A stretch of 64,000 nt of DNA from an uncultured euryarchaeote (GTDB lineage: Archaea > Thermoplasmatota > Poseidoniia > Poseidoniales > Poseidoniaceae). Location: contig CALBRH010000051.1 in the NCBI GenBank assembly GCA_937899865.1, positions 120,214 through 184,213 on the forward strand. Direction: 5' to 3'. The notes beneath the pieces are model-generated. The model saw nothing but the letters and a program-made list of their open reading frames with translations. It was not told the DNA's origin and ran no database searches. Positions 5,129-52,477 of the stretch are shown piece by piece. Position 1 is the first letter of the stretch. Every line of letters begins with the position of its first letter. A program made the translations under genes and the position numbers.

Positions 5129-6709
5129 ATGTCGTCAAAGCCGAGTAACATGGGTAACTGCCCCTATTGTAGGAGTGTCACTCTTCCGGGCGACACAATT
5201 TGTTACACATGTGGTAGAGTATTGGCAAATATTAAGTCAAAACAATTTGCTGCAGAACAGCAATTCAATCAAGGTTCAATTGAAACTACTTACTTGAAAA
5301 CTAAAAAACCAACAAGGCCAGGAGTAGTTCAAACTCATACTGGCAGAAGAAAAAACATACTCAAGCGAAGAAAAAACCGATTTAGGAGTGTGGTTATGTT
5401 GGGCTTAGTTGCTTTCATTATGCTATCGCCTCAGGCTAGAGAAGTAGTATTCAATAAATGGGCTGGAATTAGTGAGTATATACAATTAGCAGCTGCACCA
5501 TATCACTTGTATCCGATAGAATCTACTTACACTGTAGGAAAAACTATCGATGTAGTCAATAATGGTGGTGAGAGCTACTTAAGTGAAGATCTTGCAATAC
5601 CAAGAGATATATCTACTCTTGAAGGTGAGTCAACAATGTTTGAGTATACTGATGATCGTGATCCATTACTGACTCAGTCAATCCAGACTATAAATCAAAT
5701 TGAATTGATCTTGAATGGAGTTTCATACGGAATACCACTTCTTGGTGAACCTGCAAGAATGCCTGATGATAAATTGATAACACCTGATGGGCATGAAATT
5801 TGGTGGCCTGGAGTCGGTATAGGTGATGATATGTGTAATGTGGACATATGTGTAAAAGTCTACCTAAATTTGGACCCTGGGGAAACTGCATCTTTCACAT
5901 ATGCGGTTTCTCTTACTAGCACATCTTATTCATGGTGGTCATCATCAAGAGTTGATTCTCGTGTCGACGGCAGTTCAAATGGAATAAATGTAGATCGTAG
6001 TGGTGACTTTTCAGATATCGTTGACCGTGGTGGTGGTATAAAAGCTGCTCAATTCACATCATCGACATGGTATAACAAAAATCGATTTGATTATGCAATC
6101 AATGGTCAAGATGCAATTGTCACCTCTACTGCACAAACGATTTCTGCATCCCTACCAGAGGGTCGTTCAACTAACGCATATGCTTTTGCAAGGGCGACAT
6201 TTGACTATCTGCATGCTAATATCCTATATGACAAAAATGCGCCTGTAGTAGCACGGAGTGGACCTTCTTGTTTGGCAGCAGGAGTAGGAGATTGTGATGA
6301 ACAGACAAATGCCTTTTTCTCAATTCTAAGAACTAAAATGATTCCAGGTTGGTACGTTTTTGGTGCACTAACTGATTCGACATTTAACTACTGGGAAGCC
6401 CATGCTTGGGGCTACATATTACTACCAATGAATGACGAATGGTGTGCTGAAAGAAACATTGTATTGGATGACTGTTTTGTTGAAGGTTCAGTGGATGTCG
6501 TAAATAATAAATGGTTACTTCACACGCCTACAGCATTCATCGATTGGATTGAAGAAGCAGATGCAACTGGAAATCTGATAAATAATTACTACAGACCAGG
6601 CAGTCATGGCAATGATGTTGACAGAACACGATCATTTTCAACGTTGGATGTTCCTGAAACAACAGGTGGGACATATCAAATCAAGAAACTTGCAGAAAAT
6701 TTGAGGTGA
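5129..6709 (+). CDS. Zn-ribbon / single-TM / transglutaminase-like (Cys-His-Asp) domain protein
   Basis: The N-terminal ribbon is CPYCR..CYTCGR, followed by a basic stretch and a TM helix. The core GVGDCDEQTNAFFSILRTKMIPGWYVFG....EAHAWGYILLP resembles the transglutaminase-like cysteine protease fold. Confidence 0.45.
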   Translation: MSSKPSNMGNCPYCRSVTLPGDTICYTCGRVLANIKSKQFAAEQQFNQGSIETTYLKTKKPTRPGVVQTHTGRRKNILKRRKNRFRSVVMLGLVAFIMLSPQAREVVFNKWAGISEYIQLAAAPYHLYPIESTYTVGKTIDVVNNGGESYLSEDLAIPRDISTLEGESTMFEYTDDRDPLLTQSIQTINQIELILNGVSYGIPLLGEPARMPDDKLITPDGHEIWWPGVGIGDDMCNVDICVKVYLNLDPGETASFTYAVSLTSTSYSWWSSSRVDSRVDGSSNGINVDRSGDFSDIVDRGGGIKAAQFTSSTWYNKNRFDYAINGQDAIVTSTAQTISASLPEGRSTNAYAFARATFDYLHANILYDKNAPVVARSGPSCLAAGVGDCDEQTNAFFSILRTKMIPGWYVFGALTDSTFNYWEAHAWGYILLPMNDEWCAERNIVLDDCFVEGSVDVVNNKWLLHTPTAFIDWIEEADATGNLINNYYRPGSHGNDVDRTRSFSTLDVPETTGGTYQIKKLAENLR

Positions 6710-13112: not shown

Positions 13113-14213
13113 ATGGGAAATGAGTTTGATTATGATTGTATCATAATCGGCGGGGGTCCGGCAGGCAGTACTGTTGCAAGATATGCAGCTCAAGAAGGCA
13201 TCAAAGTTCTTGTTGTTGATGCGAGAGATTCCATTGGTACACCATTGCAATGTGGGGAATTAGTACCAACAAATGATGAAATGAGAAGGCTATGTCCTGA
13301 TGTTCCAGACATGGATGACTTATTCAAAACACCAAGTCATGCAATTTCTAGAAAATGTGACACCATGAACATCATAACTCCATCAGGAAAATCTCTTTCA
13401 TATAATTTTGAAGGATTGATTTTGAATCGAGTAGCACATGATGAAGCATTAGTTGAGTTAGCAAAAGCAGCAGGAGCAGAATATTTGGTACAATCTTATG
13501 TGGAAAATGTTGAGCAAAATAGTGTCCACATTCGTGGTGGAAAAACTTACACTGCAAAGGTTATTGTTGGGGCTGGCGGGCATAATGACCCCATTCGAAG
13601 AAAATACTGGAACTCTAAATCAGTCAACATACCAGTCAAATTTGAGTTGAAAGAAGGAGATTATGGAGATGCTGTAGAACTTCATTTTGGCTCTATGGCA
13701 CCTGGAGGTTATGCATGGATGTTCCCAAAATCAGAAGGTGCAAATATTGGTTTAGGAATACAGAAAAGTTTTGCTAAGGGTAAATCTCTGAATAAATATT
13801 CCAGTGAATTTATTGACAAGTATGATGGTGAAACAACTTTCAAAGGTGCTGGTTCACTTCCAATGTCCGGAACAATAAAGCGATTTGTCAAAGATCATTT
13901 TGTTCTGGTAGGTGATTCTGCAGGCATGGTTTTGCCATCCAATGGTGCAGGAATTACAATAGCAATGGTAGGAGGTAGAATTGCTGGACAAACTATTGCG
14001 AGACATATCAAAAATGGAGACCCATTAACAGATTACGAAAAGATTTGGCGAAAACAAATGGGTAGAGTTATGAAAAATTCTAAACGTTCATTCAAAATTG
14101 GTAGCATATTATTTCGAATGCCTGATAAATTGCTAGATTTGTTATTTAACAAATTAACCAAAGGGATTGTATGGAGAGCAGTGACCTGTCGGAGAATGTT
14201 TTGGATATTCTAA
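13113..14213 (+). CDS. Geranylgeranyl reductase family FAD-dependent oxidoreductase (digeranylgeranylglycerophospholipid reductase-like)
   Basis: The N-terminus carries the FAD-binding YDCIIIGGGPAGS motif, with GAGG and GDSAG motifs further on. Confidence 0.65.
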   Translation: MGNEFDYDCIIIGGGPAGSTVARYAAQEGIKVLVVDARDSIGTPLQCGELVPTNDEMRRLCPDVPDMDDLFKTPSHAISRKCDTMNIITPSGKSLSYNFEGLILNRVAHDEALVELAKAAGAEYLVQSYVENVEQNSVHIRGGKTYTAKVIVGAGGHNDPIRRKYWNSKSVNIPVKFELKEGDYGDAVELHFGSMAPGGYAWMFPKSEGANIGLGIQKSFAKGKSLNKYSSEFIDKYDGETTFKGAGSLPMSGTIKRFVKDHFVLVGDSAGMVLPSNGAGITIAMVGGRIAGQTIARHIKNGDPLTDYEKIWRKQMGRVMKNSKRSFKIGSILFRMPDKLLDLLFNKLTKGIVWRAVTCRRMFWIF

Positions 14214-19661: not shown

Positions 19662-22600
19662 ATGCGAGCATATAGCAAATCTGTTTTGATTGTGGTTCTT
19701 TTTTTGTTGTCATTAACTGTTCCTGTAATGTCTGTCAGTGCTCAGGGTGAATCTCCATCTCAAATAGAAGTTTTACATACTGCTATCAATCCAAATAATA
19801 ACAAAACTTACCACTTACTCAGTGAAGGATCTTGGTCAGATTCGGCAGAGGTTGCACGTGCATTAGATGGTTTTCTAACAACTGTTGATGATGCTGTAGA
19901 GAATCAATGGATTTTCGAAACCTTTGCTAATTACGATCAACAATCTAGGCATTTATGGATAGGTCTATCTGATTCAAATCAAGAAGGCGACTACCGTTGG
20001 CATGATGGCACACCTTTCCATTACAGGGACTGGGGACAAGATCAGCCTTCAGCGAGTGATGCGGAAAATTTTGTTCACATAGCTGGAACTAACATGGGCA
20101 ACATAATGCCTGGTACATGGAACGATTTAGATGATGACCCACAATACTTCCCAGTTTATGGTGTGGTTGAAGTTGGTGAAGCAGTAGACTATGCTCTACG
20201 ATTTGATGGTAATGATGACCAAATAATTATTGATGAAGACATTCCTTCTTTCACAGATAAAATTTCAATTACTGCTTCGATTAATTCACCAGATAACAGC
20301 GGAATACAATTTATAACTATGCTTGGTGATTATGGATGGGGACTTTACATTAACAATGGACTTGTTGCCTATGCAAGCGAGTATTCAATTTCTCGACATC
20401 CAACATCTAACACCAGTATAGTAGAAGATGTTTGGACCGAAATATCGGTAGAAATTGAAGAAGGGATAGGTGGACATTTCCTAATCGATGGAGAATTGGC
20501 TGGTGAAATTAGTGCTGAAGACGCTAAGATACCACAAGGCGACTTCGGTTCCAATGATTGTTTTCAATCTGGAGAAGATTGCGATGAATTGTACATAGGT
20601 AAGATGGGAGCAGGTTGTGACTGCAATTATTATCGGGGTATGATTGATTCTTTGTCAATAAATAATCAAGAACATTCACTAACTTGGGAATTCCTTGAAG
20701 GTGAAGGTCCAATCACAGAAGATGAAACTGGTAATTTCCAAGGTGAAATTGTAGGTGCTTCATGGGTAATGCCTGATGGGACAATTGTTGCCCAAGCAAT
20801 CCAGTTATTTTCTGATGAAGAAATATATGGTATAAGTGGCCAGAGAGGCGACCAATTACTATTTTTTGTTGAGATTGAGTCTTTGACCAAGAATCTATTT
20901 ATTGAGGCATTCTTTGAGTATAATGGTGAAGAATGGGGTGATTCTTCATTTGATGCATACTTTAGTCATGACGCCATACCGAATTCATGGGACTATGATG
21001 AAATTTATGACGATGTAACAGAATACATGTGGATGGATTGGTCGTGGCCTGATGAAGGTATTATGTGGATGGTAATTGTTCCAAGAACAGACATAGAAGA
21101 CCTTGCAATTTATACTTATATGGATATTGCAGATCCGCCCCCTTCGATAGATGAAATGACTGAATTAGTCAATGAAATACCTGTAACTGGTCAAAAAATA
21201 AACGCTGGTAGAGGTGCTCCTGATGAAGATAGAGTATTGTATTATTATGTCAATGTTACAGAAAATCTCTCAGCTTTAACTGTAAAAACATATGGTGGTA
21301 GCGGTAACATTGATTTGGCAATTTCCTCTCAAACTGTCCCTGACCCATTCAATTCTTTTTGGGGCTGGAATGAGCCTTGGTTTGAGGAATTTGACGACGT
21401 AGGTATTTTTGGTGAATTTGTTAATATTGATACTAAATCAGATTGGTCAATTGGTCCTGGAAATGAACACCAAGTAAATCTCTATGATGTTAAACCTGGA
21501 ATATACTACATAACCGCATACACCTATGGTAAGGCTAATGATTTTACTATAGTAGCATCTATGTCATTTGAACCTCAAAATATTGAGCCAGAAGATGCAA
21601 TTGAGTTAACTCCAGGCATACCATATGGCCCTCTAAGTGGCTATAATGGATTAAGTCAGTATTTCAAAATCAATGTTCCTGAAGCAACTGAAAGATTGGT
21701 TGTCGACCTTAATTCTGGTTTTGGTGAGGCATCTCTTTACATGAAATTATCAGACTCGCCAACAACTAATGACTACATGCACAAAAGCAACAGTCCTGGT
21801 TCTGGTGATAAAATAGGGTTTAATGATCCAACTCCAGGAATGTGGTATATCTTACTTGATACAGAAATGGTGTTTGGTGATGTTACAATAACTGCTTCCT
21901 TTGAAGATAGATATGTTTGGGAATATGATGGAAACCCAATTCAGTTATTCAATGGGGAAGAAATTTCAGGTATTGAGGCTCCAACTGGTGAGTCACTAAA
22001 TTTCTTTGTGGAATTAGAAAAACCAGGTGAATATTTAATGATACAAACCTATGGAGGTAATGGTGATTTAGTAATGACTGCTACTGGAAATTCTTTAGTA
22101 TTCGGTTTCGAGGATTTCTTTGATTTCTTTGAAGATGACAAGTCTTTTGACGAAGAAGGCAGACAAAGACCTGGTAACAATTTTGATAGTGAAGAAGTAA
22201 CACTTACTTCTGATGGATTCGGAACAGAACAAATGATTTACCTAGATCTACCTGCTAACGGAAGATTTGACATTTCTGTTGATGCACTAGAAGAAATCAG
22301 TGAAGTTACAATTGTGGCAAGTTGGGTTTACTCTGACTTCATAGAACCAATTGAAGAACCTCAAGATCCAATCGTTAGCCAAAACTGTCGAGATATTGCC
22401 GAAAACGAGATGACTAGTAAAGATAAAGATAGCAATGGCGTACTAAGTAAAACTGAATTTGAGTCAATCATATTAAATGACAATAAATTAGATTTTACAA
22501 AATCTGATATCAATGTTGATGGTGAAATTGAATTCTCTGAATTATTGCAGATTTCATGTTCATGTAATAATGAACTAGAATTGATATTTACTCAGTTATC

Positions 22601-23297
22601 ACCGGAAGATGATGAAGTTAGCATAGAGAAATTATCATCACAAGTATATGAAAATAAGTACAACTTCTTTGACATAGACAGTAATTCAAATTTAAGAATA
22701 TCACGTTCTGAAATCGACATCCTAATACTACTTTGTGACACAACCTTTGATGCATTTGATGGTGATGGTGATGGAGTTCCTGATGATGAAGATGCATTTC
22801 CAAATGATCCTGATGAAACCAAAGACACTGATGGAGATGGTGTTGGCGACAATGCCGACTTAGCCCCTTCAGTGTCTAATGATTTGATTTATTCAGCTGG
22901 AGCAATTCTAGCTATTGGATTGCTTGCCATGTTGGTTCTTGTATCAAGAAGTTCTAGAGGAGGTGATGTGAATTCAGCGTGGGAATCAGATAAGCAGTAC
23001 AATCTGGCTGAACAAATGCTTAACATGCAAGAGTCACCAATGGTTATGGAACAACAAATTGAGACACCACAAGACTCGTATGAAGTAGATAATGTCATGG
23101 ATAAAAGAGAAATTGTTGATAATAAAACAACCAATAGTGACAATCTTTTCGAACAATTACTTTCCCAACCTGAGTCGCCTCCAAATCAGTTACTTGGAAT
23201 GATTGATAGTAATGGTATTGAAGTGATTGAATTCCCAATGGGTTCAGGAAATATGTGGCAAAGAAGCAATCCTAATCAATCTTGGATCAAAAAATAA
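19662..23297 (+). CDS. Giant secreted/cell-surface protein with C-type lectin, PPC-like, EF-hand-like and D-rich Ca2+-binding repeat domains and a C-terminal TM helix
   Basis: The N-terminal signal peptide is followed by a C-type-lectin signature (WIGLSDSNQEGDYRWHDG..W). Several ~100-aa beta-rich modules follow (YYYVNVTEN..TYGGSGNIDL). EF-hand-like DxDxNG loops, a DGDGDGVPDDEDAFPNDPDETKDTDGDGVGDNAD repeat, a TM helix and a ~110-aa tail complete the protein. Confidence 0.7.
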   Translation: MRAYSKSVLIVVLFLLSLTVPVMSVSAQGESPSQIEVLHTAINPNNNKTYHLLSEGSWSDSAEVARALDGFLTTVDDAVENQWIFETFANYDQQSRHLWIGLSDSNQEGDYRWHDGTPFHYRDWGQDQPSASDAENFVHIAGTNMGNIMPGTWNDLDDDPQYFPVYGVVEVGEAVDYALRFDGNDDQIIIDEDIPSFTDKISITASINSPDNSGIQFITMLGDYGWGLYINNGLVAYASEYSISRHPTSNTSIVEDVWTEISVEIEEGIGGHFLIDGELAGEISAEDAKIPQGDFGSNDCFQSGEDCDELYIGKMGAGCDCNYYRGMIDSLSINNQEHSLTWEFLEGEGPITEDETGNFQGEIVGASWVMPDGTIVAQAIQLFSDEEIYGISGQRGDQLLFFVEIESLTKNLFIEAFFEYNGEEWGDSSFDAYFSHDAIPNSWDYDEIYDDVTEYMWMDWSWPDEGIMWMVIVPRTDIEDLAIYTYMDIADPPPSIDEMTELVNEIPVTGQKINAGRGAPDEDRVLYYYVNVTENLSALTVKTYGGSGNIDLAISSQTVPDPFNSFWGWNEPWFEEFDDVGIFGEFVNIDTKSDWSIGPGNEHQVNLYDVKPGIYYITAYTYGKANDFTIVASMSFEPQNIEPEDAIELTPGIPYGPLSGYNGLSQYFKINVPEATERLVVDLNSGFGEASLYMKLSDSPTTNDYMHKSNSPGSGDKIGFNDPTPGMWYILLDTEMVFGDVTITASFEDRYVWEYDGNPIQLFNGEEISGIEAPTGESLNFFVELEKPGEYLMIQTYGGNGDLVMTATGNSLVFGFEDFFDFFEDDKSFDEEGRQRPGNNFDSEEVTLTSDGFGTEQMIYLDLPANGRFDISVDALEEISEVTIVASWVYSDFIEPIEEPQDPIVSQNCRDIAENEMTSKDKDSNGVLSKTEFESIILNDNKLDFTKSDINVDGEIEFSELLQISCSCNNELELIFTQLSPEDDEVSIEKLSSQVYENKYNFFDIDSNSNLRISRSEIDILILLCDTTFDAFDGDGDGVPDDEDAFPNDPDETKDTDGDGVGDNADLAPSVSNDLIYSAGAILAIGLLAMLVLVSRSSRGGDVNSAWESDKQYNLAEQMLNMQESPMVMEQQIETPQDSYEVDNVMDKREIVDNKTTNSDNLFEQLLSQPESPPNQLLGMIDSNGIEVIEFPMGSGNMWQRSNPNQSWIKK

Positions 23298-38258: not shown

Positions 38259-39530
38259 TCACTGAACAGACATAAAGCCAGATTTATCTACGCCAAAAGC
38301 AATTGTCGCATCAAAACCAACCTTTGAGGTAGTACCATCATCATTTCTCGATGGGTCTAATGAACTCCCTTTTTGATTTGACAGGATTATAGTATCCTTA
38401 TCTGGTTGCCATCTTGTAACCATAGCCCACTCTACTCTAACTGGATCTCCAATGTCAATATCTTCGTCAACAACTGTTACCATTTTCATACTTCTATGTC
38501 CAGCAAGTGCAGCCTCAATTGCTTTAATTCCGTCATCAGCGTTTTTCTTGCGAATTTTAACAACTGCTGCCAACCAACCACAACCACCTTCTGTCATGTG
38601 AACATCTAAACACTCACAAACTTTTGAAACCGCATCCTTAATTGTTGGAGAACGAGGCAAACCCATTAGGGTCTTATGCTCTGCTTCACCAGGAATAAGT
38701 GCGTGAAAAATTGGATCGTTTCGATGAACTAATCCATCGAATTCAATAACTGGTTCTTGACGAACATCGTCGATTGTACCTGTAATGTCTACATACGGAC
38801 CTTCATCGTCATTTTCTAGTGTGATTTTACCCCAAAAGACATATTCTGAGGACGCTGGAACTTCTACACCATTTGGCATCTTAGTTAATCGAAGTGGCTT
38901 TTTATACAACTTTTCATGAAGTGCAGCAGCGATGGTTAACTCGTCAATATTTTCATCAAATGACATTGCAGCTGCTAACAAAACCACGGGGTCTGGGGCA
39001 TTAACTACGGCAACATCTACCGTGTCTCCATTTGCTCTAGCAGTTGTCATCATAGTTCGTAAATGACGAGGTACTAAACGAACTACTGTATGATTTTTGT
39101 CACGAAGGAATTGCCGATGAAAAGACATGTTTCTAATTCCATTGTACTGAGCAATAATTACGCTAGCAGAAGAATATCTTCCACGATCTTGAGGCCAATG
39201 GTGAGGAATGGGGATAGCTTCTAAATTGACTGTAGATTGAATATTCTCAAAGCATTCTGCATTTGATGAATCTACAATTTCAGGAGATGCTGGGTTTTTC
39301 ATTGCCCAAGCGAGTGTATCAATATATTCTCCTGGACTAATTCCAATAGCAGCGCATAATCTATCTCTTGTCAACAGATTAACTGCAGCTTTGTGACCTG
39401 GAGTTTCAGTAATATTATCAAAAACCAATAATGGATGATTATTGTCTTTGGAGTACTCCCACATACCGTGAATTAAACTAATTGGTTGGGAAATTGTTTC
39501 TGCAGCACCGAGATGGTCTCTAAAGGCCAT
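38259..39530 (-). CDS. UbiD-family (prFMN-dependent) decarboxylase
   Basis: The segments VEVPASSEYVFWGKI....EGPYVDITGT and VTVVDEDID.......WAMVTRWQPDKDTIIL match conserved UbiD blocks. Confidence 0.7.
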   Translation of the reverse strand: MAFRDHLGAAETISQPISLIHGMWEYSKDNNHPLLVFDNITETPGHKAAVNLLTRDRLCAAIGISPGEYIDTLAWAMKNPASPEIVDSSNAECFENIQSTVNLEAIPIPHHWPQDRGRYSSASVIIAQYNGIRNMSFHRQFLRDKNHTVVRLVPRHLRTMMTTARANGDTVDVAVVNAPDPVVLLAAAMSFDENIDELTIAAALHEKLYKKPLRLTKMPNGVEVPASSEYVFWGKITLENDDEGPYVDITGTIDDVRQEPVIEFDGLVHRNDPIFHALIPGEAEHKTLMGLPRSPTIKDAVSKVCECLDVHMTEGGCGWLAAVVKIRKKNADDGIKAIEAALAGHRSMKMVTVVDEDIDIGDPVRVEWAMVTRWQPDKDTIILSNQKGSSLDPSRNDDGTTSKVGFDATIAFGVDKSGFMSVQ

Positions 39531-43954: not shown

Positions 43955-44416
43955 ATGCTAGCCAAAGTTACTGGCTTACATACTTCTGATGGCGGAGTTC
44001 CAAAGACTCCTGTAGAATTGTTGGAGGTTACGTTTAGCGGCTGTGTTGGTGACAAGCAGAATGATTTGAAACATCATGGTGGTATAGACAAAGCAGTTTG
44101 TATCTTACAGCAGGAAATTATTGAGCAATTAAACCAAGAGGGGCATCCAATTACTGCTGGAAGCACAGGTGAAAATATTCTAATTCATGGTCTTGCAATA
44201 GGCGATATTAAACCTGGGTCAGTAATTAAGTTCCCAGATGTTCTACTTATGATTACCCAAGATGCCCCACCTTGTAAAACAATCAAGGAATCATTTCTTG
44301 ATGGATACTTTAATGCTATTTCTCATATTAGATCACCAAATAATACTAGATGGTATGCTAAGGTAATTGAAGAGGGTTCAGTTAGATTGAATGATTCTAT
44401 TGAAGTGATCAACTAA
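43955..44416 (+). CDS. MOSC domain protein (YiiM-like)
   Basis: It is a ~150-aa beta-barrel protein with the conserved GD...HGG..KA and PC motifs of MOSC domains. Confidence 0.5.
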   Translation: MLAKVTGLHTSDGGVPKTPVELLEVTFSGCVGDKQNDLKHHGGIDKAVCILQQEIIEQLNQEGHPITAGSTGENILIHGLAIGDIKPGSVIKFPDVLLMITQDAPPCKTIKESFLDGYFNAISHIRSPNNTRWYAKVIEEGSVRLNDSIEVIN

Positions 44417-46229
44417 TTCTCTTTAATTGGTAATCTGTTAATTCTCGTAGAGCCAGTAATGCTGGACTGTCTGGTAGGCGATCTAAGCATGCATGGGCTC
44501 TTTTGTGATACATTTCCGCTTTTTCTCTAGCATATTCTACCGAACCAATAGTGTTTAGTGCGGCTAAACCAAGATCTATTTCTGCTTGGGTTGCAGAATC
44601 CCCTTTACCAAGTACAGCCTTGAGATCATTTAGGGCTGGTGAATCTTTTTGTGATAGTGCGTGAATTACCATTAGTGTCCTCTTTCCTTGGGCTAAATCA
44701 GACCCTGCTGGCTTACCAAGAGTGTCTGAATCAGATAGTACATCAATTAAATCATCCATCAATTGGAAACAAAGCCCAACCGCAAGACCCCAATCTGCCA
44801 TACATTGTATGGTCTCATCATCTGCTCCAGACATACGAGAACCTACTTCTGCACATGTGAGAAACATGACTGCTGTTTTGCCTTCAATCATTTCGAAATA
44901 ATCATCCTCAGATACTGCAATTCTATCTTCAAATTCAATATCTAATTGCTGTCCTTCACTTACTCGCCTAACCATCCAAGCTAAGCGATTTACCATTGCA
45001 CCTACATCTTTGTGTTCAAGACCCTTAGCTCCAACTAATCTCTCAAAGGCAATCGCTAACATAGCATCTCCTGCATTGATTGCTGTGGGCAAACCATATT
45101 CTATGTGAACTGCATTAAGACCTCTTCTAGTATCATCATCATCCATAATGTCATCATGAACTAAAGTAAAATTATGGACGATTTCAATTGCTGCTCCAAC
45201 ATCCAATAAACCTGAGTGAGAATCTCCGACTGCTTTTCCAACCAACCATGGCAATGTTGCCCTAAGTCTTTTGCCTCCTCCTTCAATCAAATGCATCATA
45301 GCACTCGATAAGCGAGAATGTTTTGAAGCACAAAGACTGTCAGAAATCCTCTTTTCAACAAGTGGCTTTACTTCCATTATCGACGTGCTTAATCCAGCGC
45401 CAGTTGCATAAGTTAGCATATGCGAAACATCACCCATATCATGAATCATACCGTCTCTTAATCCAAGCAACTTTTGCTCATCACCAATACTATTCCACCA
45501 TTCATCTGACATCACTTGAGCCGCTATACATCTAAACCAGGGGGCAATTTCGCCATCAATATCTATTTCACCAGTTAATATTGATTCCAACTCTTGCTGA
45601 CTAACCCACTTAACATCTGAAACTTCATTTTTGTTGATTGAAAGGTTGACATCTGCTTGAATTACCAAAATGTGGTCTATCTCTCGCTCAATCCAATCCT
45701 CATTCATCCTTGCTGAATACATCATTTTAGTAACAAAGTGAAAATCTTCTAACTTTAATTCACTAGGATCTATACCAAGTTCTTGGTGAAGTTTTCTTAT
45801 CGCTGCACGTTTTACTCCCAATGAATCTTTTAATTCTGATTCTTCTGTAGAATTTAATGGATGTGAGCAGCATGAGTTAGCCCAAACACCTGGAAATGTA
45901 ACTTTATCATCGGCTCTTTTTTGCAACAATAGTCTGTTTTCACTATCAAATAATAACACACTAAAAGCTCTATGAAGTAAACCTGCTTCAAAATGAGCAG
46001 AAACCTTTGAGGCTTGGCCGATTTCATTATCGTCTTCATCGACAAGTATTACCGCTTCTGACATGAGTGAAATTTGCTCTTCATCTGCTGATTTATTAAT
46101 CAACATCTGCATCATATCATCATCTATTGTAACCGACGGAACATCATCTATTTGGTATCCAGCCAAGTCATCACCATACCTTGCACTTGAACTCAATAAA
46201 TGAATAGTTCCCCTATTAAGGAACTTCAA
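44409..46229 (-). CDS. Fusion protein: isopentenyl-diphosphate isomerase type 1 (Nudix) + geranylgeranyl-diphosphate synthase (trans-prenyltransferase)
   Basis: The N-terminal half, HRAFSVLLFDSENRLLLQKRADDKVTFPGVWANSCCSHP, is IDI-1. The C-terminal half has the first and second Asp-rich motifs LVHDDIMDDDDTRRG and FQLMDDLID...GKPAGSDLAQGKRT. It is a single uninterrupted 606-aa ORF. Confidence 0.7.
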   Translation of the reverse strand: MKFLNRGTIHLLSSSARYGDDLAGYQIDDVPSVTIDDDMMQMLINKSADEEQISLMSEAVILVDEDDNEIGQASKVSAHFEAGLLHRAFSVLLFDSENRLLLQKRADDKVTFPGVWANSCCSHPLNSTEESELKDSLGVKRAAIRKLHQELGIDPSELKLEDFHFVTKMMYSARMNEDWIEREIDHILVIQADVNLSINKNEVSDVKWVSQQELESILTGEIDIDGEIAPWFRCIAAQVMSDEWWNSIGDEQKLLGLRDGMIHDMGDVSHMLTYATGAGLSTSIMEVKPLVEKRISDSLCASKHSRLSSAMMHLIEGGGKRLRATLPWLVGKAVGDSHSGLLDVGAAIEIVHNFTLVHDDIMDDDDTRRGLNAVHIEYGLPTAINAGDAMLAIAFERLVGAKGLEHKDVGAMVNRLAWMVRRVSEGQQLDIEFEDRIAVSEDDYFEMIEGKTAVMFLTCAEVGSRMSGADDETIQCMADWGLAVGLCFQLMDDLIDVLSDSDTLGKPAGSDLAQGKRTLMVIHALSQKDSPALNDLKAVLGKGDSATQAEIDLGLAALNTIGSVEYAREKAEMYHKRAHACLDRLPDSPALLALRELTDYQLKRIS

Positions 46230-47041
46230 TTACTGAATATTTGAGTGCCGATTGTTGGTACACCAGTACATGCATCAAGCAAACGCTGAGAATTTTCACC
46301 ATTGATTATGAATACATCGATGCCCATTGCTGCAACTTCTGCACCCCTAGTAGCCTTCAAACCAATCCCACCAGTTATATCAATATCTGAGTGATGGACA
46401 CCAGAAAACTCTACATTTGGTGACCACTTATCAATTAAATCATCATCAGTAGCTACTTTAGGTGGCCTTCTAAGAATTCCATCTACTCCTTTAACAGCAA
46501 AAATCAACCTAGACACATTTGGAACATCTTGGCATATTCTTACTACTAAATCATCACCAGATAATATTCCAAATCCACCAACATCACAATCTACTACATC
46601 ACCAAAAGTGATTACAACTTCTTTGCTTGAATCAAATCGATCAACTATGTTTCCACTGAAATTACTTCCTGTATTCCTAACCCACTTGTGTGGGGGGTGA
46701 GAAATTGTCGAAATTCCCTTTTCAGCAAATGATTTTTTAATGATTGAATTTAAAGTAAGCATTTCTTTACGTACTATACTAACAGCCTGTATTTGTGATT
46801 CACAATCCTCTTGTGGAGAGAAATCATGATTTGCAATTAAGCCTTCATTTAGTCGCCAATGTTTAGCTCTTAGATGGCCGAATGAACCTGCACCATGAAC
46901 AACAATTATTCTCAACCCTTGTTGTAAACAATTTTCCACAACACCTACTAAATTATCAATTATATTGATCTCAGGCGTACACATTTGAGACTTGTTCGTG
47001 ATTAGTCCACCTCCGAACTTAATCACTACGACCTCAGCCAT
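46226..47041 (-). CDS. ipk: Isopentenyl phosphate kinase
   Basis: It carries the amino-acid-kinase fold IPK motifs VIKFGGGLI, VVHGAGSFGH, ILSGDDLV and DIDITGG. Its stop overlaps the IDI::GGPPS start (ATGA). Confidence 0.75.
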   Translation of the reverse strand: MAEVVVIKFGGGLITNKSQMCTPEINIIDNLVGVVENCLQQGLRIIVVHGAGSFGHLRAKHWRLNEGLIANHDFSPQEDCESQIQAVSIVRKEMLTLNSIIKKSFAEKGISTISHPPHKWVRNTGSNFSGNIVDRFDSSKEVVITFGDVVDCDVGGFGILSGDDLVVRICQDVPNVSRLIFAVKGVDGILRRPPKVATDDDLIDKWSPNVEFSGVHHSDIDITGGIGLKATRGAEVAAMGIDVFIINGENSQRLLDACTGVPTIGTQIFSN

Positions 47042-48212: not shown

Positions 48213-48279
48213 CGATTAACTAAACAATGTAGGTTAGTTTAACCGCTTCAATCAAATGCTTCTTACTCTTGGGACTGTT

Positions 48280-49452
48280 ATGGTTGAAGTAGGCATCATC
48301 GGTGCTGGCCAAACAAAATATGGCAATCATCAACTTGGAATGAAGGGAATGTGGGCTGAAGCCGCAAGAAATGCCTTCGACAGTGTCGACAAAGATTTTC
48401 ACCCTAGTCAAATCGATGAGGCTTTTATTGGCAGCGTCGCATTTGGTGGTGGCCAATTAGGAAATACAGCGGCATTATTAACAGAGCACTCGGGGATGCA
48501 AGGGAAACCTGTTCGACGAGTAGAAAATGCCTGTGCATCTTCAGGTTTTGCTTTACGAGATGCATGGATGGCAATAAAGAGTGGTCAAGCAGATATCGTA
48601 GTAGCAGGCGGTATTGAGAAAATGAATGATTTAACACCAGAGAGAAAGCGATTTTGGCTTGGAGTATCTGGAGATACTGAATGGGAAAGATTGGCTGGAC
48701 TTACTTTTCCAGGCACTTATGCCTTGATGGCACGTAGATATTTTCATGAATTTGATTCAACTCATGACGACTTAGTGAACATTAGTGTGAAAAATCATTT
48801 TCATGGACTTGAAAATCAATTTGCTCATATACGTAAAGATGTTAGTTTTGATAAGGCCAAAAATGGATTTATGGTTGCAGACCCATTGACATTGTATGAT
48901 TGTTGTCCAACATCTGATGGTGCTTCATGTGTTATTCTTGCTGCAGATCACGTGGTAAAACAATTCACTGATGATCCAATTTGGATTAATTCATCTGCTG
49001 CGGCCTCTGATTATTTAGCACTCCATGATAGACCTTCAATCACTCAATTGGTTGCAACTCAAATGGCTGCAAAACGAGCATACTCTATGGCTGGAATAAA
49101 AGCAAACGACATCGATTTGGCTGAAGTTCATGATTGCTTTACCATTGCTGAATTATTAGCTACTGAAGATCTAGGATTTGCTAACCGTGGAGAAGGTGGA
49201 TTGTTTGCTAGAGAAGATAGAGGAAGAAGAAATGAAGGCAATACATGCATCAATCCAAGTGGTGGGCTAAAATCCAAAGGCCATCCTTTAGGTGCAACCG
49301 GAACCGGTCAAACCGTAGAAATTTTCAAGCAACTACGTGGTGAAGTTGAGTCAGTTAGGCAAGTTAGGGATGCTGAAACTGCTCTAAGCCATAATGTCGG
49401 AGGTTCTGGTGCAACATGTGCAGTTCATATTTATGGGAGGGATAAGAGATGA
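48280..49452 (+). CDS. Archaeal-type acetyl-CoA acetyltransferase / thiolase
   Basis: The thiolase fold begins VGIIGAGQTKYG, with the active-site Cys in NACASSG and C-terminal GH..GATG and GG.G blocks. The ORF track begins at 48256. Confidence 0.75.
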   Translation: MVEVGIIGAGQTKYGNHQLGMKGMWAEAARNAFDSVDKDFHPSQIDEAFIGSVAFGGGQLGNTAALLTEHSGMQGKPVRRVENACASSGFALRDAWMAIKSGQADIVVAGGIEKMNDLTPERKRFWLGVSGDTEWERLAGLTFPGTYALMARRYFHEFDSTHDDLVNISVKNHFHGLENQFAHIRKDVSFDKAKNGFMVADPLTLYDCCPTSDGASCVILAADHVVKQFTDDPIWINSSAAASDYLALHDRPSITQLVATQMAAKRAYSMAGIKANDIDLAEVHDCFTIAELLATEDLGFANRGEGGLFAREDRGRRNEGNTCINPSGGLKSKGHPLGATGTGQTVEIFKQLRGEVESVRQVRDAETALSHNVGGSGATCAVHIYGRDKR

Positions 49453-50309: not shown

Positions 50310-51326
50310 ATGGCGGGATTTGGTGGAATTAGAAAAGGTCGGCGCGAAGCCGCTGATAACTTATCTTTTACCGAAGGAGGAGATTGTCCAAGATGTGGAG
50401 GAGATGCTGAAAAGTCTTCGATGGCTGGATATCTTAGATGTGTAGTATGCTCACACGAATGGCCAGATCCTGATTATGTAGAGGAAAGCAAAGTAGAAGA
50501 AATACCAAGTTACCATAGAGATGCTGAACTTATTGAACAATTCAAAAAAGACGTTTCTTCAGGTAGTTTAGCAAATGTACTAGGCGTGAACAAGAATCTA
50601 TCTGAACAACAGGAAGCATCGCTTGCTCGTTTAGAAGACAAGTGGATGAGTGGAATGCAGGGCCGATTTAATACTGCCACTGAAGAGCGAAAACCATTGA
50701 TGATTATGTTTGATGAAGAAGATAACATTGTATCTACTGAAGTAGCTGCACTAACTGTTGTTTCAAATGGTTTTGATGGTGGTGAAGAAATACGGTTAGA
50801 ATATCCAGGAAAAGGAACCGAGTTTTACGCATTCAATATCAATGATGGCATGGGATGGAGAAGAGGAGCTAATGCAGAAGAGACTGCTAGGTCAATAGCA
50901 AATGTAATCAATAACAAATCTAATCTTGTTTTTGCCAATGTAGATGGTGCTAGAATTTCTTTTGAATTAAGGAGCGAAGATTTGAGGCCAGAGTCATTGG
51001 TGCTTTTTGTCGACGACCCTGGTGGAACTGATATTATTGCTGAAAAGAATGGCATTATATTAGATGCTAGGAATGCTTCCGATTTCGATGATTATCGAAG
51101 GGTCGTGGAAATGGTTCTTGAAGACGGCATAATTTCACCAAGCGAAGATCAATTATTATGGTCGCTTCGTCAAGAATTAGGAATAGATGATGCATACCAC
51201 ATTCAAATGGTTTTGAGTATGTATGGAGATCAAACTCTCAAGGAATGTACTAGTTGTTCTGCAATGGCTGAATTATATGTCGAATATGGAACTTGGTATT
51301 GTCATTCATGTGAAGAGTGGTGCTAA
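50310..51326 (+). CDS. Hypothetical protein with N- and C-terminal zinc ribbons
   Basis: The N-terminal ribbon is CPRCGG...CVVCSHEW and the C-terminal one is CTSCS......YCHSCEEWC. It lies upstream of the actin-like gene. Confidence 0.45.
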   Translation: MAGFGGIRKGRREAADNLSFTEGGDCPRCGGDAEKSSMAGYLRCVVCSHEWPDPDYVEESKVEEIPSYHRDAELIEQFKKDVSSGSLANVLGVNKNLSEQQEASLARLEDKWMSGMQGRFNTATEERKPLMIMFDEEDNIVSTEVAALTVVSNGFDGGEEIRLEYPGKGTEFYAFNINDGMGWRRGANAEETARSIANVINNKSNLVFANVDGARISFELRSEDLRPESLVLFVDDPGGTDIIAEKNGIILDARNASDFDDYRRVVEMVLEDGIISPSEDQLLWSLRQELGIDDAYHIQMVLSMYGDQTLKECTSCSAMAELYVEYGTWYCHSCEEWC

Positions 51327-51451: not shown

Positions 51452-52477
51452 ATGGCTGGAGATGTATTGTATATTGGAATTGATTTGGGAACTTTTCGCT
51501 CTGTAATGGTTTCCTCAGATAGTCATGAAGAAGAAGAGTTAACTGTTATTGGAACACCAAAAGACCCTATTGCAAAAAATTTCTTGAAAAGAGATGTTCT
51601 ATTTGGTGAAGAAGCATTGAAGAATAGATTGGCGCTCAATTTGTTTAGACCTCTAGAGCATGGTGTAATCAAAGATACATCTGAAGATAGAGATTTCATC
51701 GCTCACTTCATCACTCATCTAATTTCACTTTCAGACCCTGAAGAATATGACCGAGTTGTGGCTGTTATTGGAGCTCCGGCTGAAGCAAGTTATGTTGACA
51801 AGACTGCTATTTTTGACGCCGCTGCTGGTACAGTTAATGCAGCAATGATTATTTCTGAGCCTTTTGCTGTTGCTTACGCTCTTGATATGATTGAACACAC
51901 CCTAGTAATTGATATTGGTGCTGGAACTACTGACCTATGTCGTGTCTACGGTACTATACCAAGCCCTGATGACCAAATGCATACTGAATATGCTGGTGAT
52001 TATATCGATAATAAGATTATTGAAGAAGTTCAGTCTAAATATAGCGGTGCACAAATTACCAAAGACATGGCAAGAAGATGGAAGGAGCAGAACTCATTTG
52101 TTGGAACTTCAACCCCAGATTCTCCAGTAATGGTTGATTTCTCAATCGAAGGTAAGGCAATGACTCTTGACATTACTGATTGTATCCAAAATGCATGTGA
52201 ATCTATTGTTGATCCAATTGTTGAGAATGTAAAAACTCTAATCGCTGGTTCAAACCCTGAATATCATGAACAATTTAGAAGAAATATGATTCTTGCTGGC
52301 GGAGGTTCTGGAATTGATGGCCTTGGTGCTATGATAGAGAGAAGACTCAGTGATCTTGGCGACGTCAATGTTCATGTCGTTGACGACCCTGTAAGACTTG
52401 GTGCTATGGGCGGTCTAAGACTCGCTATGGAAGTACCAGAAGAGATGTGGAAGAACCTAACTCTTGCTTCCCGCTGA
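51452..52477 (+). CDS. MreB-like actin-family ATPase
   Basis: Phosphate-1 is IGIDLGT and phosphate-2 is VIDIGAGTTDL. The adenosine motif is ILAGGGSGIDGL, and FRPLEHGVIKD matches the MreB RPMKDGVIAD block. Its 341-aa length is MreB-like. Confidence 0.75.
   Translation: MAGDVLYIGIDLGTFRSVMVSSDSHEEEELTVIGTPKDPIAKNFLKRDVLFGEEALKNRLALNLFRPLEHGVIKDTSEDRDFIAHFITHLISLSDPEEYDRVVAVIGAPAEASYVDKTAIFDAAAGTVNAAMIISEPFAVAYALDMIEHTLVIDIGAGTTDLCRVYGTIPSPDDQMHTEYAGDYIDNKIIEEVQSKYSGAQITKDMARRWKEQNSFVGTSTPDSPVMVDFSIEGKAMTLDITDCIQNACESIVDPIVENVKTLIAGSNPEYHEQFRRNMILAGGGSGIDGLGAMIERRLSDLGDVNVHVVDDPVRLGAMGGLRLAMEVPEEMWKNLTLASR

Follow-up and report, generated by a model that had tools for sequence, protein, structure and literature searches.

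Fusions that tether a DMAPP-forming enzyme to a chain-elongating enzyme (DMAPP, dimethylallyl diphosphate) are familiar from terpenoid metabolic engineering, where isopentenyl-diphosphate isomerase (IDI) is joined to prenyl synthases artificially and through flexible linkers. The system described here does the same in nature: on a 64,000-nt stretch from an uncultured archaeon of Marine Group II (MGII; Poseidoniales, Poseidoniaceae, near genus MGIIa-L1; GCA_937899865.1, contig CALBRH010000051.1, positions 120,214 to 184,213), referred to throughout as the window, a single open reading frame (ORF) joins an IDI domain to a geranylgeranyl diphosphate (GGPP) synthase (GGPPS)-like domain, directly downstream of a gene for isopentenyl phosphate kinase (IPK). 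Unlike the engineered fusions, the MGII fusion is natural and order-wide, and its short linker is predicted to be ordered. A natural IDI-squalene synthase fusion, PtIDISQS, is known from the diatom Phaeodactylum (Fabris et al. 2014, as cited in PMC12168105); as represented in that citing paper, it shares with the MGII protein the natural joining of a eukaryote-type IDI1 to a downstream isoprenoid enzyme, however it is eukaryotic, has another architecture, and its partner, a head-to-head squalene synthase, makes no direct use of DMAPP, whereas the partner in the MGII fusion is the direct consumer of the IDI product. The MGII ORF very probably encodes a bifunctional IDI-GGPPS that would act right after IPK and be translated from a start codon of its own, TTG 46166. 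The parts of the locus are as follows, with amino acid (aa) numbers counted from the first codon of the maximal ORF.

44409..46229, minus strand: maximal IDI::GGPPS fusion ORF, 606 codons from TTG 46229, supported by full-length homologues
44409..46166, minus strand: probable fusion coding sequence (CDS), 585 aa, from the start-site comparison
45423..46085, minus strand: type-1 (Nudix-fold) isopentenyl diphosphate (IPP) isomerase domain, about aa 49-269, from TIGR02150, Foldseek and a residue map
45393..45422, minus strand: linker HMLTYATGAG, aa 270-279, from alignment with stand-alone IDI and GGPPSs
44412..45392, minus strand: short-chain trans-prenyl diphosphate synthase domain (archaeal type-I GGPPS-like), aa 280-606, from PF00348, PDB 5jfq and Foldseek
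45141-45155, minus strand: first Asp-rich motif (FARM) DDIMD, aa 359-363, invariant in 40 sequences
44742-44756, minus strand: second Asp-rich motif (SARM) DDLID, aa 492-496, invariant in 40 sequences
46226..47041, minus strand: IPK, 271 aa, NCBIfam NF040647 (IPPK_Arch), 143.9 bits against a cutoff of 120

The original prediction had read the 606-aa ORF as one polypeptide made of a type-1 IDI and a GGPPS-type prenyl synthase, and this reading is borne out by the domain calls and by the intact catalytic Cys and Glu of the IDI half. The ORF is present at full length, all of the motifs quoted for it (HRAFSVLLFD, PGVWANSCCSHP, LVHDDIMDDDDTRRG and FQLMDDLID) lie within it, and the domain search that had been proposed places Pfam NUDIX at aa 85-231 and polyprenyl_synt at aa 306-546 of the same frame. 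A homologue search of 5.8 billion proteins gave 2464 matches at E<=1e-10; the best 120 of these (83-99% identity), from ENA, JGI, NCBI, Logan and Tara sources, all carry both Pfam domains, and the close homologues are named 'isopentenyl-diphosphate delta-isomerase [Candidatus Poseidoniaceae / Poseidoniales archaeon]' by NCBI. Among GTDB species genomes, 583 stretches encode a relative of the fusion, and the best 80 of them are full-length fusions throughout (80/80, 63-97% identity) in metagenome-assembled genomes (MAGs) of Poseidoniales, with the nearest locus labelled MGIIa-L1. CM001443.1, the 2012 MG-II genome, is among the fusion loci (GCA_000246735.1, 'uncultured marine group II euryarchaeote' in the Rinke supplement). 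A distant fused representative, P0122 (45% identity), leads to fused proteins that carry the NCBI name 'Candidatus Thalassarchaeaceae' (MGIIb), and the fusion is present in both Poseidoniales families, MGIIa and MGIIb. The fusion is real and is conserved across the order Poseidoniales.

It is scarcely credible that the single ORF is a sequencing or assembly artefact in which a lost stop or a frameshift merged separate idi and ggpps genes. A lineage with separate IDI and GGPPS genes that overlap by 4 nt does exist, in which a one- or two-base error could fuse the two, and one 290-aa match, P0138, resembles a frameshifted copy from long-read assemblies; however, five sources (ENA, JGI, NCBI, Logan and Tara) supply independent assemblies with the fused frame at 43-99% identity, the junction is both conserved and ordered, with D238 and G245 of alignment A1 (defined below) at least 90% conserved, and the window linker has 10 additional in-frame residues compared to the split genes. 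The recurrence of the single ORF in independent assemblies removes the worry over an assembly artefact for which a frameshift check had been advised. The further claim that the fusion is unusual holds in one respect only: type-1 IDI is uncommon in archaea, where it is listed only for Haloarchaea and Thaumarchaeota, as bacterial transfers (PMC3533463), but the fusion itself is the normal state across Poseidoniales and is auto-annotated in NCBI and JGI. Machine-annotated copies of it have stood in public databases since 2012, and each half is a familiar enzyme; a full-text literature search that included the main MGII genomics and lipid papers and a Nudix-clan review, with most subscription journals outside its scope, gave no account of the fusion.

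The IDI half of the fusion ORF exceeds the cutoffs of two NCBIfam models, IPP_isom_1 (TIGR02150, 159.5 bits against 105.8) and NF002995 (147.8 against 127). Its catalytic residues were mapped through HMMER alignments to the E. coli and human IDI structures, and conservation was read from alignment A1, which holds 40 fusion sequences with 44-88% identity to the window.

E. coli IDI H25 and H32: window ORF H79 and H86
E. coli IDI R51 and K55: window ORF R105 and K109
E. coli IDI C67 and H69: window ORF C121 and H123
E. coli IDI Y104 and E114: window ORF Y171 and E181
E. coli IDI E116 and W161: window ORF E183 and W231

All of the mapped residues are invariant in A1, including C121 and E183, the catalytic Cys and Glu on which the isomerase assignment depended. 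In the CC pair the first Cys is variable (VC in P0340 and P0308), while the catalytic second Cys is retained.

In comparing the domain to isomerases of known structure, human IDI1 (PDB 2ICJ/2ICK/2I6K) is matched over the whole domain, including the N-terminal DxxQxxLMxExxILVDExD and C-terminal WW segments, which enterobacterial IDI lacks, and the Cys/Glu/His/Trp catalytic set is shared. Human IDI1 scores 190 bits against the IDI half (E 3e-55 as a PDB sequence match), human IDI2 160, the Salmonella enzyme 66 and the E. coli enzyme 56. In a Foldseek comparison, the N-terminal half of the predicted model superimposes on human IDI1 2ick with a TM-score of 0.91 and a root-mean-square deviation of 2.1 A at 43% identity. 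The Nudix-box equivalents have been given as SX7EX14RR(L)xAExGI for human IDI1 and GX5EX7RRAxEExGI for E. coli IDI, as opposed to GX5EX7REUXEEXGU for the hydrolases (PMC5389931); that of the window reads S-HPLNSTE-E-SELKDSLGVKRAAI-RKLHQELGI, with the spacing SX7EX14R(R/K)L as in human IDI1. Judged by its sequence, the IDI half is eukaryote-like and fits the long-form IDI1 subgroup. It differs from human IDI1 in being joined at its C-terminus to a prenyl synthase, in the 15-20 additional N-terminal residues that MGIIa proteins carry compared to MGIIb, and in its archaeal host. Among 1.84 billion representatives the best stand-alone IDIs reach 202-222 bits, only a little more than the human enzyme. 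The nearest stand-alone homologue, P0135 (47% identity), lies on a bacterial-looking contig; neighbour-joining (NJ) trees of the IDI domain that included outgroups left its placement without bootstrap support. The domain may stem from an interdomain transfer.

These data also bear on the idea that the Nudix domain is a diphosphate hydrolase, converting IPP and DMAPP to isopentenyl phosphate (IP) and dimethylallyl phosphate (DMAP), or has a regulatory role, in which case IPK would recycle the monophosphate. The Pfam match is to the generic NUDIX family and there are weak matches to Nudix hydrolase models, however these hydrolase models fall far below their cutoffs (33 against 300 bits) while the IDI equivalogs lie above theirs; the Cys, Glu and Trp residues specific to IDI show no variation, the Nudix-box equivalent is spaced as in human IDI1 and does not follow the hydrolase motif, and the structural alignment to human IDI1 is close in both identity and TM-score. 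A hydrolase or regulatory domain is therefore very improbable.

The C-terminal half had been predicted to be a trans-prenyltransferase with both Asp-rich motifs, and it proved to be so: PF00348 matches with an E-value of 1.5e-63 (214.7 bits), the FARM is without insertion, and FARM and SARM are invariant. GGPPS 5jfq is the PDB sequence match (E 2.7e-58), and Foldseek aligns the C-terminal half of the model to archaeal GGPPS with a TM-score of 0.95. Compared to the archaeal type-I GGPPSs of Geoglobus acetivorans (5JFQ) and Pyrococcus horikoshii (1WY0), the domain shares the fold (TM-score 0.93-0.95) and the SARM, and both the Geoglobus enzyme and the window domain carry VHNFTLVHDDIMD with a Phe at position -5; it differs in its N-terminal fusion to IDI, in scores that stay below the NCBIfam GGPPS cutoffs, and in that its product is predicted. 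It is on account of these scores that the domain is filed as GGPPS-like.

Archaeal type-I GGPPSs are characterised by a Phe at position -5 before the FARM and by a DDxxD without interruption, and the rule that an aromatic residue at -5 limits the chain to C20 reportedly derives from mutagenesis of F77 in the Sulfolobus enzyme. The residue at this position, F354, is invariant in the 40 sequences and most likely stops elongation at C20, that is, at GGPP. As no equivalog reaches its cutoff, this chain-length call rests on the -5 aromatic rule and on likeness to solved GGPPSs. Another product, either a mixture as in the bifunctional farnesyl diphosphate/GGPP synthase IdsA of methanogens or the C25 geranylfarnesyl diphosphate, would be in keeping with the best-scoring NCBIfam model, IdsA_Meth ('short chain isoprenyl diphosphate synthase'), and with the nearly equal score of a geranylfarnesyl model, all of them below cutoff. 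The Phe at -5, the uninterrupted DDxxD and the identity of the closest solved structures as GGPP synthases argue otherwise, and a product other than GGPP is considered unlikely.

Structural predictions for the whole 585 residues were made with AlphaFold2 on alignment A1, which gave a mean predicted local distance difference test (pLDDT) value of 91 and a predicted TM-score (pTM) of 0.87. The junction is ordered in the model, with pLDDT values of 87-92 and a strand at residues 241-246. The high pTM for a two-domain chain implies a defined mutual orientation of the domains, and the fusion is predicted to form one compact two-domain body. No PDB chain spanning both halves was found by Foldseek, for which the query-normalised TM-score was at most 0.53. 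In the alignment the IDI domain ends with ...IHDMGDVS, homologous to the C-terminal ...KIYRM region of human IDI1, and the GGPPS domain starts with LSTSIMEVK; the linker between them has 10 residues in MGIIa and about 5 in MGIIb. The linker has an in-frame ATG (..GDVSH-M-LTY..; 45393-45449, minus strand) with a GGTGAT sequence 9 nt ahead of it, in codons that are also constrained by the protein, and it is conceivable that internal initiation at this ATG yields a GGPPS-only product.

Unrelated proteins with NUDIX and polyprenyl_synt domains were found outside MGII in the representative search (P0212, P0180 and P0136; loci L086 1215-2798, L087 184-1698 and L094 1279-2949). The P0212 fusion lies between genes for a UbiA prenyltransferase and a methyltransferase, the P0180 fusion adjoins a squalene-hopene-cyclase-like gene, and P0136 combines a eukaryote-type IDI with the type-III GGPPS motif LLVDDIEDNSKLRRG. 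The same search returned long proteins of 672-1059 aa that match in IDI only, which may be IDI-squalene synthase fusions like PtIDISQS.

The gene directly upstream of the fusion, on the same strand, is an archaeal IPK, as had been stated: the ORF matches Pfam AA_kinase (PF00696), its NF040647 score is above the cutoff, and it occupies this position in all loci that contain upstream DNA (78/78). The two genes keep this adjacency across loci and may plausibly share a transcript. How the fusion is started was approached by comparing 80 related loci, and the elements that bear on it are given below.

46164..46175, minus strand: GGTGAT (Shine-Dalgarno-like), 3 nt, then TTG, the likely start of the fusion CDS, from relatives and NCBI annotation
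46189..46213, minus strand: 25-nt element GGGGAACTATTCATTTAT(T/C)GAGTTC, located after the IPK stop and before the fusion start, which the 10 closest loci match with 0-3 mismatches

The original prediction had the two genes translationally coupled through an ATGA overlap. The minus strand at the IPK stop reads ...AGT AAT TGA AGT TCC..., in which the IPK stop is TGA 46228-46226 and the sole overlapping start codon is TTG 46229-46227; the overlap is thus TTGA, not ATGA, and it hinges on a TTG start that is unsupported. In-frame start candidates are the TTG codons 1, 12 and 22 (46229, 46196 and 46166) and the ATG codons 39 (46115), 40 and 42. The closest relatives (83-88% identity) start with an ATG ('MYGDDLAGYQ') 44-45 nt past the IPK stop, and the first ATG of most other loci is found 35-130 nt past it. 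In-frame stops close the reading frame of L004 and L006-8 immediately past the IPK stop, and the downstream ATG is the first start codon in these loci. L003 has an in-frame TAG where its relatives have the ATG, and in the window, L001 and L009 this ATG is replaced by AGG; these ATG-less lineages (the window, L001, L003 and L009) all have a TTG or GTG five codons downstream with GGTGAT ahead of it. The NCBI start of P0004 (97% identity) is the same codon as TTG 46166. GGTGA-type motifs precede 8 of the 35 window genes, mostly operon-internal ones, compared to 6% of random positions. On the strength of the comparison of related loci, the NCBI start of P0004 and the GGTGAT in front, TTG 46166-46164 is taken as the most likely start, giving a 585-aa protein that would begin 59 nt past the IPK stop. 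The fusion most likely has its own ribosome-binding site, or an internal promoter, and is not started by way of a stop/start overlap with IPK.

Coupling of the two genes by overlapping stop and start codons, with TTG 46229 as the fusion start, is correspondingly improbable. In the window and L001 the ORF stays open as far as the IPK stop, an open frame in L002 and L005 begins with a TTG right past the IPK stop, without overlap, and a stretch reading RGTIHLSSSSA looks conserved at the amino acid level. This stretch is conserved as DNA and not as protein, because the frame is closed in L004 and L006-8 and L003 has its TAG past the conserved stretch; in addition, the overlap is not conserved in relatives, TTG 46229 has no Shine-Dalgarno-like motif in front, the first ATG is in most loci well away from the IPK stop, and one clade carries an inserted 80-aa ORF. 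The coupling claim thus does not stand.

The conserved DNA is the 25-nt element, which is kept even where it lies outside coding sequence (L003, L004 and L006-8 at least). It holds a TATA-like TTTAT about 30 nt ahead of the likely fusion start, was not found in the more distant loci, and may be an internal promoter or regulatory site. A hairpin spanning the IPK stop is predicted for the window sequence (z -2.55), but as relatives do not share its 5' arm, it was rejected as the cause of this conservation. In one MGIIa clade (L018, L015, L017, L021, L025, L030, L031, L035, L037, L043, L052 and L064) IPK and the fusion are about 320 nt apart, and the gap in L018 holds an 80-aa ORF (5741-5983) resembling a small membrane protein.

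An unfused form of the locus also exists. P0125, the closest representative of a stand-alone GGPPS, is encoded on a Tara contig (L090), where a 235-aa Nudix/IDI gene directly precedes it and a convergent gene for elongation factor 2 (EF-2) follows, and the same arrangement of separate ORFs recurs:

L089 897-2293; L090 461-2163; L091-L093 (L092 5461-7999): split IDI (235 aa) and GGPPS (332 aa) as separate ORFs

The IDI stop and GGPPS start of the split pair overlap by 4 nt, as ATGA in L090 (...ACATGAGT...) and as TTGA in L089 (...ATTTGAGT...), and AAGGGGG precedes the overlap; in L089, IPK is found ahead of the pair as well. The GGPPS clade of this lineage comprises 14 clusters at 90% identity, one of which, P0391, is found on 17 contigs including NZRR01000021.1, where the neighbourhood matches that of the window down to the genes for UbiD, a TPR protein and a small Nudix protein. 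NZRR00000000 is MAG EAC30 (TOBG), listed as 'MGIIa', subclade 1 (Tully 2019 supplement). The unfused locus (EAC30; L089-L093) shares with the fused one the order DFP, actin-like, thiolase, Tpt1, Zn-ribbon, IPK, IDI, GGPPS, EF-2, S7, S12, UbiD, TPR and Nudix, as well as a eukaryote-like IDI (41-46% identity) and a GGPPS (49-52% identity) related to the fusion halves; it differs in that IDI and GGPPS are separate, overlapping ORFs.

NJ trees of EF-2, IPK, IDI, GGPPS and their concatenation (100 bootstraps) give three clean groups, namely 65 fused MGIIa loci, the split lineage, and MGIIb with L081. With two archaeal EF-2 sequences from the PDB as outgroups, the EF-2 NJ tree places the split lineage as sister to fused MGIIa in 92.5% of 200 bootstraps and never outside all fused lineages; the outgroup-rooted single-domain NJ trees of GGPPS and IDI did not resolve where the unfused lineage branches, and the supported answer comes from EF-2 only. 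This single-gene NJ result is compatible with two readings: the fusion may predate Poseidoniales and have been split again in one lineage, or MGIIa and MGIIb may have fused their genes independently. The hypothetical read-through segment, from the G(D/E)(V/L) motif of IDI to the first conserved GGPPS residues, would have 18 residues in the split lineage, as it does in MGIIb (18), compared to 22 in MGIIa, and with such comparable lengths an indel of 1-2 nt would interconvert the fused and split states. On either reading, fused and translationally coupled forms appear interchangeable, which suggests that selection maintains stoichiometry and proximity and not an obligatory tunnel. A more specific scenario, in which an MGII ancestor acquired a eukaryote-type IDI1 and welded it to the native GGPPS as a rigid enzyme that hands DMAPP directly to the elongating site, with one MGIIa lineage later re-splitting it into two coupled ORFs, is possible but rather doubtful; if true, the split lineage would be a natural matched pair for measuring what the fusion gains in isoprenoid flux.

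The natural reading of the IPK-fusion pair is that IP would be turned into IPP, then IPP/DMAPP, then GGPP within two polypeptides. IPK would phosphorylate IP to IPP, and the N-terminal Nudix-fold domain would interconvert IPP and DMAPP by the type-1 IDI mechanism, with a divalent metal bound by His and Glu residues and with Cys121 and Glu183 as the proton shuttle. The C-terminal, all-helical domain would then condense DMAPP with three IPP on its two DDxxD motifs, and GGPP would pass into isoprenoid ether lipids and carotenoid/retinal synthesis. Its consumers would be geranylgeranylglyceryl phosphate (GGGP) synthase, which is an MGII core gene (PMC6336850), the product of the GGR_cat gene at 13113-14213, and carotenoid/retinal synthesis for proteorhodopsins. 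Fusion would fix a 1:1 ratio of the two activities and set the source of DMAPP beside its consumer, and may allow substrate channelling.

Several points weigh against a bifunctional IDI-GGPPS with its own start. That start is one of several candidates (TTG 46229, 46196 and 46166 and ATG 46115), no NCBIfam GGPPS/IdsA equivalog reaches its cutoff on the C-terminal half (IdsA_Meth 280.7 against 468; GGPP_syn 256.1 against 500), and the enzyme activities of all members of the fusion family, as well as the C20 product, are inferred. Covalent linkage, moreover, is not essential, because a close lineage has separate genes, and this weakens any strong claim of channelling.

Two further genes of the window may feed the same route:

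38259..39530, minus strand: UbiD-family decarboxylase, TIGR00148, 315.7 bits against a cutoff of 244.85
48256..49452, plus strand: thiolase, candidate acetoacetyl-CoA thiolase (first step of the mevalonate pathway), NF004720, 445 bits against a cutoff of 420

The UbiD-family gene had been noted before and is indeed present, about 5 kb from the fusion, and it keeps the same relative position in MGIIa, MGIIb, the P0289 clade and the unfused lineage, in the order UbiD, S12, S7, EF-2, fusion, IPK. Its best PDB relatives are other UbiD enzymes. The suggested tie to IP/DMAP metabolism through prenylated flavin mononucleotide (prFMN) is speculation. In the archaeal mevalonate pathway IP is formed by a decarboxylase (PMC12547664), and the UbiD homologue is a possible candidate for anhydromevalonate phosphate decarboxylase, which would supply IP to IPK and provide a more direct link than prFMN. 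The thiolase gene is syntenic with the fusion locus in L081 and L092. A geranylgeranyl-reductase-family flavoprotein (GGR_cat) is encoded at 13113-14213 (plus strand), 30 kb from the fusion, and is a likely downstream user of GGPP-derived lipids.

The order of genes around the fusion in the window, in the MGIIb loci L083 and L084 and in the third clade (the P0289 clade, represented by L081) is actin-like, unknown, (thiolase), Tpt1, Zn-ribbon, IPK, fusion, EF-2, S7, S12, UbiD and TPR. Between EF-2 and the fusion lies a small MOSC-domain gene (43955-44416, plus strand), which shares 8 nt with the 3' end of the fusion; neither MGIIb (L083) nor the P0289 clade (L081) nor the unfused lineage (L090-L093) has it at the corresponding position. 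The actin/MreB/Salactin-like gene adjoins a conserved gene of about 340 aa (51452-52477 and 50310-51326, both plus strand), for which there was no Pfam or NCBIfam match, and the two are syntenic across Poseidoniales (L081, L083 and L091). The window as a whole is ordinary archaeal chromosome, with genes for EF-2, ribosomal proteins S12, S7 and L37ae, proteasome alpha, SBDS, exosome subunits, TiaS, diphthamide synthase, SRP54 and an Lhr-type helicase, and a GC content of 36-41% along its whole length; tRNA and Rfam scans of the 64 kb gave no matches. Elsewhere in the window, a 1211-aa protein (19662-23297, plus strand) combines a C-type lectin domain with a PPC (pre-peptidase C-terminal) domain and is probably secreted or at the cell surface.

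As the database names cover one half each ('isopentenyl-diphosphate delta-isomerase' in NCBI and 'GGPP synthase type I' in JGI), pathway reconstructions can miss one of the two activities. A natural, compact IDI-GGPPS is what terpenoid engineers build artificially, and it may serve as a ready-made part, with the related unfused version as a natural control for the value of enzyme fusion. Marine Group II archaea are abundant in the ocean and uncultured, and their membrane lipids are still disputed; the present locus suggests that a whole order commits IP to IPP, DMAPP and GGPP by way of two adjacent genes, in which a eukaryote-like isomerase, oxygen-insensitive and flavin-independent, would replace the usual archaeal type-2 enzyme.

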